Assembly: GCF_003334255.1 (NCBI RefSeq)
Contig: NZ_QOWU01000080.1
DNA: 14,006 nt
Direction: 5' to 3' (one strand)
From: Escherichia coli
GTDB taxonomy: Bacteria > Pseudomonadota > Gammaproteobacteria > Enterobacterales > Enterobacteriaceae
In this document: one piece after another, positions 2,456 to 10,120 of the stretch
Layout of the letters: each line of letters opens with the position of its first letter
Position numbering within the stretch: position 1 is the first letter of the stretch
Made by a program: the position numbers and the translations under genes
The notes under the pieces: model-generated
Seen by the model: the letters and a program-made list of their open reading frames with translations, nothing else
The model's database searches: none
What the model was told of the DNA's origin: nothing

Positions 2456-3213
2456 CAGGTTGTTACCTCCGGAAAACGACGACGTAATAGCAGCACCAAT
2501 GAGCGATAAAATAGCGTATCCAATAGCCAGCCAATTAAACCAATGGTTAAAATACCCACTATTACAGCATCAGTACGCATCATCTCTTGTGAATCAATAA
2601 TCAAGTATCCCAGTCCACTGCTGGCAGCGATCAATTCTGCGCCAATTAATGCTCGCCAGCTATAACCAAAAGCCAGACGAAAACCAGTAACCACAGAAGG
2701 AGTGGCGCTTGGAATTACAATCGCCAACAGATAGCGTAAAGGTGAAAGATTCAGGCTAATGGCCAATTCCTTATGGGCTGTACTGACGCGACGCAGTCCA
2801 TCACGAGTGTTAAGAAATATGGGAAACACCGAGGCCAAAACAATAATCGAGAGTTGTGTCGTCTCCCCAATACCCAACCATAAAATCAATAATGGCGTCA
2901 TGGCCAATGGGGGGATCATACGAAAGAGTGCCAAAGGCGCGGACAATAACTGTTCCAGCCATGAGTAACGAGCAACCAAACCGGCCAACATCGTTCCAAG
3001 ACAACAACTCAGACAAAACCCTTCAAACACTCGTAATAATGAAGTGGATATATGACGAGGCAATGCGCCAATTTGCCACATATTTACGGCGGAATAAAAC
3101 ACCGTTATGGGTGATGGTAGTAAATAAGCAGAGATTAACTCCAAACTTGATAACAATTGCCAGTAAATCAATAGTAATATTGGTGTCAGCAACGGTCGCC
3201 AATAGCGCATCAC
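2455..3213 (-). CDS. ABC transporter permease (NitT/TauT family)
   Basis: 252-aa hydrophobic multi-helix protein; its stop overlaps the ATPase start and its start overlaps the stop of the upstream 185-aa ORF, suggesting translational coupling. Confidence 0.85.
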   Translation of the reverse strand: MMRYWRPLLTPILLLIYWQLLSSLELISAYLLPSPITVFYSAVNMWQIGALPRHISTSLLRVFEGFCLSCCLGTMLAGLVARYSWLEQLLSAPLALFRMIPPLAMTPLLILWLGIGETTQLSIIVLASVFPIFLNTRDGLRRVSTAHKELAISLNLSPLRYLLAIVIPSATPSVVTGFRLAFGYSWRALIGAELIAASSGLGYLIIDSQEMMRTDAVIVGILTIGLIGWLLDTLFYRSLVLLLRRRFPEVTT

Positions 3214-4318: not shown

Positions 4319-4504
4319 TTGTCGTACATTCGCAGCCAGGGGATCATTATACCGGAAGAGCTCTTGTCCAGTGTATCACCACTACCATGGGGTCATATCT
4401 CACTCACTGGAGATTACCTGTGGAACGAAATTGACCATCCCCTTGAACGATACAGGCCACTTCGTACTAATCGCTTCAATCCAAAGAACTTCACTTTTCC
4501 TTAG
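4319..4504 (+). pseudogene. tnpA: Tn3-family transposase TnpA C-terminal remnant
   Basis: Translation ends PLPWGHISLTGDYLWNEIDHPLERYRPLRTNRF, resembling the extreme C-terminus of Tn3-family TnpA (LGWEHINLTGDYLW...RPLRP as recalled); stop codon lies inside the right IR, as in Tn3-family transposons. Confidence 0.5.
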
Positions 4505-4537
4505 CGTGTGTTATCGCAGAAATGCCCACGGAACGCC
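4500..4537 (-). repeat. Tn3-family 38-bp terminal inverted repeat (right)
   Basis: Reverse complement reads GGCGTTCCGTGGGCATTTCTGCGATAACACACGCTAAG. Confidence 0.65.
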
Positions 4538-4879
4538 GTTATGGCCGTGAATGTGCCGACGACCTGGATTAATTCTGGTATGAGTGAGTTTGACAGCCGG
4601 TTGTTTGCAGCCATTAACGATATGCTGCTGGATATGCTGGCCGCTGTTGCCAGAAGGGACTATGAACAACGGCGGGAACGCCAGAAACAGGGGATAGAGA
4701 AAGCAAGGAAAGACGGCAAATATAAAGGGCGTAAACCTAATCAAGCCAGACATGATGCAATTATCAGGTTGATAGAAAGTGGCAGCTCCTGGACACAGGT
4801 ACAGAAGGTGCTAGGGTGCAGCCGCGGCACAATCAGTAGCGCAATAAAACGTAAATCCCGGCAATCCTCCGGTGAGTAG
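4508..4879 (+). pseudogene. Serine recombinase (resolvase/invertase) C-terminal fragment; catalytic N-terminal domain absent
   Basis: Contains LLDMLAAVARRDYEQRRERQKQGIEKARKDGKYKGRKP followed by an HTH-like tail (SWTQVQKVLGCSRGTISSAIKR); convincing similarity begins around 4570-4580; no S-T-x-x-Q catalytic region upstream. Confidence 0.5.
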
Positions 4880-5240: not shown

Positions 5241-5336
5241 TCAATCGATGAACTGACGGATCAGTTCCAGAACTGCAATCAGCGCGTTTGCAACGGCGAC
5301 CACAGCCCTGAGAACGATGATTAACAGGTTAATCAT
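5241..5336 (-). CDS. Candidate type I toxin: 31-aa hydrophobic peptide, DinQ/TisB-like
   Basis: Not in the ORF track (below size cutoff). Translates to MINLLIIVLRAVVAVANALIAVLELIRQFID; GGAG sits 6 nt upstream of the ATG; resembles DinQ as recalled (shared IIVL and ALIA.LELIR blocks). Confidence 0.5.
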   Translation of the reverse strand: MINLLIIVLRAVVAVANALIAVLELIRQFID

Positions 5337-5413
5337 CCGTTTCTCCAGGTTGATACTGGAGGAAGTTGCCGTTGCTTGCTCATACATCGCCTGTCACAAC
5401 GGCTCTCTCACAT

Positions 5414-5656: not shown

Positions 5657-5748
5657 GATGTTGGATGTAGAGTATCTTCCTCCAGTCAGAGCCACCAACT
5701 CAGGACTGGAAAACACGAAAAAGCCCGATTACCAGTCGGGTTTTTTTG
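5657..5748 (+). ncRNA. Candidate ~90-nt small RNA (AgrB-like antitoxin), divergent from the toxin gene
   Basis: Promoter-like elements upstream and a strong intrinsic terminator at the 3' end; body contains repeat copy 2, which is imperfectly complementary to the minus-strand toxin transcript at copy 1. Confidence 0.4.
5722..5748 (+). terminator. Rho-independent terminator
   Basis: Stem GCCCGA / TCGGGT with loop TTACCAG, followed by seven T; A-tract upstream, so possibly bidirectional. Confidence 0.6.
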
Positions 5749-8436: not shown

Positions 8437-8688
8437 AGCTTTTTCCTCAAAAAAATCTCCGGTATAAAACCAGAGGCTTGTTATAGGGGTCAGTTTGGAG
8501 ATCGGAAAATTTTGTTCGTTAAGCACATTATTTAACCAATAGATATGCGTAACGGATTGATTTTGCGTCAACGGCTATCGCTTTTAAGTTATCGCCATTG
8601 CGGTATTGCATTTAGGTTATCCGATAGAGGTCAAATCCTCTGAAAATGCCGTATAGCACGGGAGTACACCCTACCGCAATAGCGCAAC

Positions 8689-8704
8689 CGTACAATATTG
8701 TACG
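8689..8704. promoter_or_regulatory. Perfect 16-bp palindrome CGTACAATATTGTACG
   Basis: Self-complementary; half-site resembles the TGTACA operator motifs near the phd promoter; lies in the divergent intergenic region. Confidence 0.3.
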
Positions 8705-8865
8705 TTTCCCAAACGCAGCCCATCAGGCGCGGAACTCATCGAGGCGCGGGAATAAAATCCCATTCAGATGCCGGATAGATTCAAGCAAGCCCACTTATCG
8801 TCAAAATCGGTGTTGCAAAAACGGGAGTGACCATAGATTCGTTTCCCAAACCGCCCCCTTTTATA

Positions 8866-8899
8866 TTGACCAGAAGTGTTGTACAGTTTAATTGTACAA
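8866..8899 (+). promoter_or_regulatory. phd-doc promoter with two palindromic TGTACA operator sites
   Basis: TTGACC at 8866-8871; two TTGTACA-containing palindromes centred about 13 bp apart (8879-8886 and 8892-8899), immediately upstream of the ribosome-binding site. Confidence 0.45.
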
Positions 8900-8916
8900 C
8901 TCAAAGAGGAAGCACT

Positions 8917-9141
8917 ATGTTTACATGTAACTATAGCCATGCTCGCGATAACCTGGCCTCGTTGCTCGAGCTGGCGGTTGATGAAAATCAGCCAGTTGAG
9001 ATTCAGCGCCGTAAAGGTGGCGCAGCTGTACTGGTTGATAAAGACGCTTTTGAACGATACCGTAAAGCGGCTCTTGATGCTGAGTTTGCTGAGATCATGC
9101 AAAGTCATGGGACGGCCTATACGGAGCTTTCTAAGCGATGA
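8917..9141 (+). CDS. phd: Phd-family antitoxin
   Basis: 74 aa, MFTCNYSHARDNLASLLELAVDENQPVEIQRRKGGAAVLVDKDAFERYRKAALDAEFAEIM..., closely resembling P1 Phd as recalled; GAGGA 6 nt upstream; stop overlaps the doc start (ATGA). Confidence 0.85.
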   Translation: MFTCNYSHARDNLASLLELAVDENQPVEIQRRKGGAAVLVDKDAFERYRKAALDAEFAEIMQSHGTAYTELSKR

Positions 9142-9524
9142 AATTCGTTAGTTCACAGGAAGTGATTGAGTTTCATGACCGCTTGATTTCGCGTGATGGT
9201 GGCGTGGCGGGTATGCCAGAACCCGGTCGCGCTGACGCGATCATTCATCGTGTTTTGAACATGTATCATTATGAAGGTGTGACAGATATTATGGATCTGG
9301 CTGCCGTGTATTTAGTTGCTATTGCTCGTGGTCACATTTTCAACGATGCAAATAAGCGAACAGCCTTGTTTGTTGCACAGGTTTTTTTAAAACGGAATGG
9401 TGTACATATTATTAGTTCACGTATTTCGTTTGATGAAATGCAAATTATCGCTTTGAATGCTGCAACAGGAGAATATAACTGGAAGATGGTTTCTGACCAT
9501 CTTAAAGCCATTATTCTAAATTAG
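9138..9524 (+). CDS. doc: Doc toxin (Fic/Doc family)
   Basis: 128 aa with the Doc-type motif HIFNDANKRTA and GMPEPGRADAII, resembling P1 Doc; translationally coupled to phd. Confidence 0.9.
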   Translation: MKFVSSQEVIEFHDRLISRDGGVAGMPEPGRADAIIHRVLNMYHYEGVTDIMDLAAVYLVAIARGHIFNDANKRTALFVAQVFLKRNGVHIISSRISFDEMQIIALNAATGEYNWKMVSDHLKAIILN

Positions 9525-9631
9525 ATATAGATATCCAATCAGCAGCATTTTACAATCTCCTGAGCAATGTAAAAATCATATATCTTTTTACTATATAATT
9601 TCTGGCGTATGTGCTCAATTCAGACCTGACA

Positions 9632-9693
9632 CCCTTCCGCTTCCTCGCCCACTCGCCCACTCGCTCACTACCGTTCGGTCGCTGCGGCGAGCG
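9632..9693. other. ColE1/pMB1-like plasmid backbone segment (region flanking ori; possibly a primosome assembly site)
   Basis: CCCTTCCGCTTCCTCGC...CACTCGCTCACT...CGTTCGGTCGCTGCGGCGAGCG resembles the pBR322/pUC segment TCTTCCGCTTCCTCGCTCACTGACTCGCTGCGCTCGGTCGTTCGGCTGCGGCGAGCG, recalled from memory. Confidence 0.4.
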
Positions 9694-9776
9694 TTTGTAA
9701 GTTTTTCAATACAGACGACGTTCTCCCTGGCTGATTAATATTGTGTAATAATACATATCGTTTTCAGGAATAATGG

Positions 9777-10034
9777 GGGGTTGAGGCCCAATCGTACGAG
9801 ATCGTACGCTAAGTTCATTTTTTGAGCAGAAGAGGGGGGGGGTAAAGAAAACGAGGGTTTTGTTTACTCTTCCCGTCAATGCCAGTAGCCATGCGGTTTC
9901 AGGGACTTTCAGTGTTAATAAACTCGGTAATCAAATCAACGTAAACCTGCCTAACAACGCCACGACTTTATTGACTTAAAATCATATAGTTAGCTTCTTA
10001 GCGTACGTTTCCGCTCCATTGGGCTTCAAACCCC
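9777..10034. mobile_element. 258-bp element bounded by gamma-delta (Tn1000)-like IRs; IS101-like miniature element, or a composite of IR remnants
   Basis: Left IR 9777-9813 GGGGTTGAGGCCCAATCGTACGAGATCGTACGCTAAG and right IR 9997-10034 (reverse complement GGGGTTTGAAGCCCAATGGAGCGGAAACGTACGCTAAG) are inverted with outer GGGG and inner TAAG; no ORF inside. Confidence 0.5.
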
Positions 10035-10120
10035 TATACCAGGCAAGACGCATTCGCCTTGCCCGTAAATATCTGAACGGTAAAAAGGTTATGGAAGAAA
10101 CCGGGGAAAATACGCCCCCG

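Follow-up and report, generated by a model that had tools for sequence, protein, structure and literature searches.

A putative primosome assembly site downstream of doc on an IncK2/Z plasmid is probably a passenger of a phd-doc cassette

What is a short piece of ColE1-like DNA doing downstream of doc on a large plasmid? The original prediction, made for the 14,006-nucleotide stretch of Escherichia coli DNA analysed here (the window), picked out about 60 bp that resemble the flank of the pBR322/pUC origin, associated them with a primosome assembly site, and left two options: a conserved single-strand initiation (ssi) element or a recombination scar from a small plasmid. We consider it probable, at about 0.72, that the element at 9604-9693 is a member of the ssiA family by descent, that it travelled from F-type plasmids as a passenger of phd-doc, and that it now persists as a derived allele with at most auxiliary PriA-dependent activity.

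An ssiA-like core downstream of doc

Over the 466 nt tested, the window is 100% identical to the E. coli plasmid NZ_CP060058.1, which is 99.8 kb long and typed IncK2/Z; window position x corresponds to position 45728 - x of that record, on the opposite strand. The plasmid pECOED of strain ED1a is 99.6% identical to the window. The features needed below are the following.

8859..9778, plus strand: phd-doc cassette, comprising promoter/operator, phd, doc and a downstream unit with the element
8917-9141: phd (gene name from the RefSeq annotation of NZ_CP060058.1)
9138-9524: doc (gene name from the same annotation)
9532-9603: AT-rich leader of a ~165-nt unit, kept only among the large-plasmid copies (window, L115, second copy of L108)
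9605-9618, minus strand: conserved box GCGTATGTGCTCAA; on the minus strand, the putative active one, it follows the core on the 3' side
9635-9693: core homologous to ssiA / n'-pas, putative active strand minus, 5'-CGCTCGCCGCAG...GCGAGGAAGCGGAA-3'
9635-9648, minus strand: conserved block TTCCGCTTCCTCGC, complement of GCGAGGAAGCGGAA, with the GAAGCGG motif inside
9644-9669: tandem 8-nt repeat CTCGCCCA, 3.2 copies (Tandem Repeats Finder)
9682-9693, minus strand: conserved block CTGCGGCGAGCG, complement of CGCTCGCCGCAG

The segment does lie downstream of doc, with TTCCGCTTCCTCGC starting at 9635 and CTGCGGCGAGCG ending at 9693. Between them the CTCGCCCA repeats are followed by ACCGTTCGGTCG, and an exact GAGGAAGCGGAAG, which contains the GAAGCGG-type motif, occupies 9634-9646 of the minus strand. 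GAAGCGG is a motif shared with the phiX174 site and goes back to the literature of the 1980s. The predicted extent of about 60 bp holds for the core, but the conserved element is longer and includes the upstream box GCGTATGTGCTCAA. This box is kept in the window, in L115 (an IncI2-typed, divergent relative), in both copies of L108 (NZ_CP146509.1, 39 kb), in the Col(MG828) plasmid L005 and in the MOBQ4 plasmid L117; its surroundings differ between its five unrelated contexts, and the alignment of small plasmids to the window begins at 9605. Among the large plasmids the similarity extends further, as window 9532-9693/9695 aligns at 75-78% to L108 4465-4624 and L115 2501-2662. Each of these two units follows a RepA gene at ~0.8-0.9 kb and does not adjoin doc.

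ColE1 (NC_001371) matches the window core in two collinear blocks, with 18/19 and 12/12 identities. Aligned globally, the window core and the pMB1/pBR322-type core agree in 49 of 61 columns, with a score of 33.5, about 9.5 sd above shuffled sequences (mean 0.0, sd 3.5, maximum 11); the likeness to the pBR322/pUC origin flank is thus borne out as homology to the experimentally defined ssiA of ColE1/pMB1. The blastn comparison proposed as a check, run over 72,556 plasmid records, matched 3,108, most of them small ColE1-like plasmids at ~80% over ~60 nt, the others including 1.5-kb Col(MG828) plasmids (94.6% over 37 nt) along with 33-kb IncX4 mcr-1 plasmids. Exact pMB1/pBR322-type cores were also seen on short contigs assigned to Streptomyces, Cutibacterium, Paracoccus, Candidatus Caldipriscus and others (L007, L009, L016, L020, L035); these matches in non-enterobacterial assemblies are probably cloning-vector contamination.

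In ColE1, Rfam places RNAI at 645-749 on the minus strand (73.8 bits), so that the start of RNAII falls near 643 of the plus strand; the RNA/DNA switch (ggaaaaacgcc), near 1198, marks ori. From ori, the homologous core at 1310-1364 is 110-165 nt further downstream; its CGCTCGCCGCAG...GCGAGGAAGCGGAA strand has the RNAII sense and is the one displaced at initiation. ColE1 ssiA acts strand-specifically. Once single-stranded, the GCTCGCCGCAG-hairpin-GCGAGGAAGCGG strand folds, resists coating by SSB and is bound by PriA, which together with PriB, DnaT and DnaC loads DnaB; DnaG then primes. The site named ssiA (n'-pas) lies at that ColE1 position downstream of ori (PMC3167613), where it is exposed by DNA polymerase I extension, recruits PriA and has the primosome assembled on it for lagging-strand synthesis (PMC3167613; also PMC5935869). 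Hence, the suggested link to a primosome assembly site finds support in the ColE1 position (PMC3167613) as well as in the architecture of the family described below. Because the GGAAGCGG strand of ColE1 is RNAII-sense, displaced and downstream of ori, the window minus strand is, by analogy, the putative active strand.

A family of sites beside diverse replicons

Members of the family consist of GCTCGCCGCAG, a variable hairpin with compensatory changes, and GCGAGGAAGCGG; on the active strand, CGCTCGCCGCAG is followed by one base, an arm X, an apical region, the arm X', and then CGAGGAAGCGGAA. A pattern scan of one genome per species, in which the two outer blocks were fixed, returned 99 stretches with 28 distinct cores, and the matches in enterobacterial small-plasmid contigs have diverse cores. 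The two arms, which were defined by eye, covary as CCTGT/ACAGG, CTCAT/ATGAG, CTCAC/GTGAG, CTTTGAC/GTCAAAG and CCCA/TGGG. Four of the five helix pairs show changes on both sides, with 16 cells against 4.6 in shuffles; none of 500 shuffles scored as high, and the signal drops sharply when the partner columns are slid. This covariation supports a helix beside CGAGGAAGCGG. RNAalifold, applied to the family, paired only invariant columns (CGCT/AGCG, CCGC/GCG.G) and detected no covariation.

The conservation of the blocks was rechecked without the fixed pattern, by searching whole plasmids with a profile made from small-plasmid rows only. Plasmid F (L120, NC_002483.1) yielded three copies, at 48031-48099 (+), 49566-49619 (-) and 38065-38127 (-), of which the first two flank ori2/repE/incC of RepFIA and face inward, while the third is separated by ~450 nt from the rep gene of RepFIB. 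All three carry GCTCGCCGCAG and CGAGGAAGC and add the compensatory pair CCGGT/ACCGG, and each has either a GAA-looped apical hairpin or the covarying helix. A primosome assembly site at mini-F ori2 was reportedly described by Imber, Low and Ray (PNAS 1983), and a set of ssi sites from F, R100 and ColE2 is said to have been treated by Nomura et al. in 1991.

Chromosomes almost never carry a member of the family; more than 3,000 plasmid records do. Complete E. coli genomes contain it at 1,329 places, 1,283 of them on plasmids and 46 chromosomal. A search of the phage collection found no genuine phage with the element, its two matches being 2-4-kb records that resemble small plasmids. The architecture recurs beside replication genes of ColE1-like, Col(MG828), MOBQ4, IncX4, IncFII/FIC, mini-F ori2 and RepFIB type: ~500 nt downstream of the sole gene in Col(MG828), ~730 nt upstream of the initiator gene in IncX4, between rep and mobC in the MOBQ4 plasmid L117, and ~0.8-0.9 kb downstream of the RepA gene in replicons with a 340-aa RepA. 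A general rule, by which the element would be on the rep-sense strand at 0.5-1 kb downstream of rep, fits ColE1, Col(MG828), IncFII/FIC and the 340-aa RepA replicons, but it fails on position in MOBQ4 L117 and in IncX4, whose element is upstream of rep, and the mini-F copies face inward. In view of these exceptions, the orientation of an element is only weak evidence. On pColZ and pHUSEC2011-3 the site is annotated as a 'phiX174-type primosome assembly site' (PMC6668396). In every large plasmid examined it carries no annotation, though it is present in 914 of 5,426 complete E. coli genomes (~17%).

Cassette, allele and alternative readings

In the nine compared loci at which the left end of the phd-doc cassette is present, this end is constant at 8859, shortly before the promoter and operator of phd, and the right end varies between 9697, 9733, 9758 and 9778, at 95-97% identity. 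The palindrome TTGTACAGTTTAATTGTACAA, at 8870-8905 just upstream of phd on this constant boundary, presumably represents the operator of Phd/Doc. Records of 82 plasmids, F-type and other large ones, contain the 251 nt that follow doc. In ~50-kb IncFII/FIC plasmids such as pGMI14-004_2, the order is a parA-like gene, two small ORFs, phd, doc, the element, a stretch of ~0.8 kb with a DnaA box (tgtggataag), and repA, which points toward the element; in L112, the DnaA box and oriR are ~0.8 kb from the element and repA is ~1 kb away. Replication of R1/R100 (IncFII) is unidirectional and its direction is established. From the gene order, therefore, the element lies beyond oriR in the direction of replication and on the repA-sense strand, and the pas strand of F-type plasmids is, by analogy, the lagging-strand template, in the same topology as ColE1 ssiA.

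In NZ_CP060058.1, the sole repA occupies record positions 1-873, ~35 kb from the element, which is thus away from the origin-adjacent setting of its relatives. Of the element's two strands, the putative active one is repA-sense with respect to the IncK2/Z replicon, and the family profile, run over the whole 99.8-kb plasmid, found no copy besides the window element.

Several rearrangements are visible around the cassette. Homology to the nearest relative, L108, ends at 9778, at the left end of a Tn3-like element. This ~262-bp element (9776-10037) is bounded by imperfect inverted repeats of 37-38 bp, GGGGTTGAGGCCCAATCGTACGAGATCGTACGCTAAG and GGGGTTTGAAGCCCAATGGAGCGGAAACGTACGCTAAG, which resemble Tn3-family termini; it may be a Tn3-derived miniature element. 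About 200 conjugative plasmids match it at 95-97%, and its flanks show no obvious 5-bp target duplication. On the other side, window 8486-8720, within which lies the palindrome CGTACAATATTGTACG, is an inverted copy (98.7%) of the CP027641.1 segment to the right of the cassette (L110 3206-3440). The cassette has therefore been flipped at least once relative to IncF origin-proximal DNA. L108 holds two copies of the unit, at 3110-3167 and 4465-4740; the first is doc-linked and 97% identical to the window, and the second is divergent, lies ~0.8 kb downstream of its own repA and shares 205 nt of homology with a 1.5-kb Col(MG828) plasmid. Elsewhere in the window, Rfam reports an AgrB antisense RNA (RF02891, 68.8 bits) at 5661-5748 on the plus strand, and in the identical plasmid the DinQ-like type I toxin gene dqlB is annotated nearby, on the minus strand, at about 5242-5337 in window coordinates.

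The window copy itself is altered. Col(MG828) plasmids and L110, a doc-linked copy of F type, have the same canonical 57-nt core, TTCCGCTTCCTCGCCCACTCGCTCACTAACGTTCGGTCGCTGGGGCTGCGGCGAGCG. Relative to it, the window has one additional 8-nt CTCGCCCA unit and lacks 6 nt (CTGGGG/GGGCTG) around 9683/9684, a loss that includes, on the active strand, the CCCA half (5' arm) of the covarying CCCA/TGGG helix. With a profile built without the window row or F-type rows, the window copy scores 36.5 bits (E = 7e-12), against 51-68 for typical members (ColE1 68, IncX4 63, canonical F/MG828 forms 51-53). Both conserved blocks and GAAGCGG are intact.

Such variation is widespread among its sisters. Eleven doc-linked or related copies have 0, 1, 2 or 3 CTCGCCCA units before the terminal CTCGCTCA, one being the canonical number and the sole form seen in the species-representative scan; across the window, L003 and L108-L116, the unit acts like a mini-VNTR prone to slippage, located inside a primosome assembly site. 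One lineage has GAAACGG in place of GAAGCGG, and another has substitutions in both blocks. In L111-L114, representing at least 14 conjugative IncFII/FIC plasmids of ~50 kb, GCGGCG and ~45 nt are gone and one conserved block is broken; evidently, the element is dispensable for these replicons. The 107 nt between doc and the element are 98-100% identical among the indel-variable copies; rightward of the element, most groups drop to 82-86%. From this drop, the element marks a mosaic junction. In the divergent L115, the core is ~98% identical and the flanks are 64-77% identical, which suggests that at least some lineages have experienced purifying selection or recent exchange.

Folding offers little guidance. 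The predicted single-strand DNA fold of the window copy, at -13.4 kcal/mol, is no weaker than those of the canonical form or ColE1, and on both strands the window, ColE1 and pMB1 sequences fold no better than dinucleotide shuffles. Given that none of the members, validated sites among them, exceeds its shuffles, folding cannot judge function. As far as its sequence goes, the window copy may be fully active or fully dead.

We favor the passenger reading because the cassette boundaries are common to F-type plasmids, the sole repA is ~35 kb off, and the allele scores low. Under this reading, a phd-doc cassette of ~0.9 kb would have brought the element as its 3' tail into an IncK2/Z plasmid. In F-type plasmids the cassette stands ~0.8 kb past the oriR of IncFII/FIC, and the repA-sense strand bears the pas; in the IncK2/Z plasmid, the element is outside the replicon. 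With its additional 8-nt repeat unit and 6-nt loss, the derived allele would at best help PriA to load the helicase on the minus strand, in an auxiliary role. Being common to many co-resident plasmids, the conserved core also marks a recombination junction. The window copy is probably dispensable.

An unlikely, though far from negligible, alternative is that the element is a functional primosome assembly site under selection in the IncK2/Z plasmid, where it would reload DnaB on the lagging-strand template of a unidirectional IncK2/Z fork, for restart or auxiliary priming, phd-doc and the site together forming a stability cassette. The intact blocks and GAAGCGG speak for it, as does the L115 core, kept far better than its flanks, and so does the finding that deleting the ssi of pIGRK leads to multimerisation and instability (PMC6854812). 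The active strand also has the polarity of a lagging-strand site, being the repA-sense strand, although chance alone would give this polarity in half of all cases. Six related plasmids carry the same allele, but these are close relatives and say nothing on constraint. Against selected function stand the ~35 kb to repA, the derived, low-scoring allele, the flip of the cassette relative to IncF origin-proximal DNA, and the tolerance of sister plasmids for block loss, GAAGCGG substitutions and 0-3 repeat units.

A bolder version seems improbable to us. It holds that the doc-linked pas is functional and tuned by slippage of the 8-nt repeat, that phd-doc plus pas is a mobile stability cassette, and that the 57-nt core serves as a crossover point at which modules are shuffled between small Col and large F/I/K plasmids.

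The scar of a ColE1/pMB1-type plasmid that integrated and was then deleted is very hard to credit. The ~80% identity to the ColE1/pMB1 ssiA region would fit it, as would the ColRNAI replicons carried by some large F plasmids (e.g. CP027641.1). However, the rest of the ColE1 origin is absent, as originally noted: Rfam finds no RNAI in the window, and ColE1 itself gives 73.8 bits. ColE1 homology stops at the edges of the core, the nearest relatives belong to the Col(MG828)/F-type subfamily (96-98% over matching segments) and not to ColE1, and 82 large plasmids, F-type and others, share the flanks of the window copy. A ColE1/pMB1 replicon remnant was rejected, the window containing no RNAI/RNAII or other origin sequence. 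Each of the two options offered at the outset therefore survives in part: the element does belong to a conserved, origin-associated ssi family, but it has moved away from any origin and carries indels; the copy does sit at a mosaic junction, but the donor was not a ColE1-type plasmid. Judging by its sequence relatives, the element most likely came with the phd-doc cassette of F-like plasmids, its nearest kin being the Col(MG828)/F-type subfamily rather than ColE1.

Equally hard to credit is a role in conjugation, with the element priming complementary-strand synthesis on the transferred strand in the manner of leading-region ssi sites. The plasmid does have an IncI-type transfer system, and the element is on the leading-region side of oriT, ~28-33 kb from nikA. 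Polarity contradicts this role: nikA/mobA and the relaxase are on the record plus strand, with ardA to their left and transcribed toward oriT. From the orientation of nikA/relaxase and ardA in NZ_CP060058.1 and pECOED, the T-strand is the record minus strand, i.e. the window plus strand, whereas the ssiA-like strand is the window minus strand, which is retained in the donor. A conjugative leading-region ssi was rejected on these grounds, the putative active strand not being the transferred one.

Least likely of all is an RNA-level feature of the doc transcript, an intrinsic terminator or 3' stabilising hairpin, for although the element lies 110 nt downstream of the doc stop codon and has a short GC stem followed by TTTGTAAGTTTTT, the same unit occurs without adjoining doc in the second L108 copy, L115, L116 and all small plasmids, a terminator scan of 9600-9720 on both strands found nothing (on which an intrinsic doc terminator was rejected), and Rfam gave no match at the element locus at gathering or permissive thresholds.

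Comparison with known initiation sites

Taken together, the picture of PriA-dependent priming is unchanged: the window holds an ordinary element in an unusual place, displaced from its origin. Its recognition explains the recurrent "ColE1-like" similarity block in IncF, IncK, IncI2-typed and IncX4 plasmids, and averts confusion with a ColE1 replicon or with vector contamination. For plasmid biology, the family adjoins very different replicons, and its doc-linked copies are indel hot spots and markers of mosaic junctions.

With ColE1/pMB1 ssiA, the window element shares the blocks CGCTCGCCGCAG and GCGAGGAAGCGGAA, the overall length, repeated GAGCG/GCGAG motifs and the strand-specific architecture. 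It differs in the interior hairpin sequence, and, unlike ColE1/pMB1 ssiA, it has an expanded 8-nt tandem repeat and neither an adjoining origin nor RNAI/RNAII. The nearest subfamily is formed by the Col(MG828) and MOBQ4/ColE2-like small-plasmid sites. Outside the two indels, 50 of 51 positions match the canonical Col(MG828)/F-type core, and the upstream GCGTATGTGCTCAA box is common to both; in contrast to those sites, the window copy has the extra CTCGCCCA unit, lacks 6 nt, and resides on a 100-kb IncK2/Z plasmid far from rep.

The mini-F ori2/repE and RepFIB sites share with the window copy their blocks (GCTCGCCGCAG ... CGAGGAAGC) and the position of the helix, where their compensatory pairs are independent. 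Unlike the window, the F copies have a GAA-looped apical hairpin, no 8-nt repeats, and a rep gene within 0.5 kb. G4-type primase-only sites (the R1 G-site) and Frpo-type leading-region promoters are likewise single-strand initiation signals of large plasmids, but they belong to other sequence classes and act by other mechanisms, whereas the window element has phiX174/ColE1-type blocks and its putative active strand is the non-transferred one.

Finally, the ssi of the rolling-circle plasmid pIGRK is dispensable, yet it aids stability, and its deletion results in multimerisation and instability (PMC6854812). Plasmids of the pHW126/pIGRK type have a replicon different from that of the window plasmid; nevertheless, their accessory, non-essential and stabilising ssi represents the class of phenotype expected for a copy outside an origin (PMC6854812). 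By this analogy, a non-essential role that reduces multimerisation and instability would be the most to expect from the window copy.
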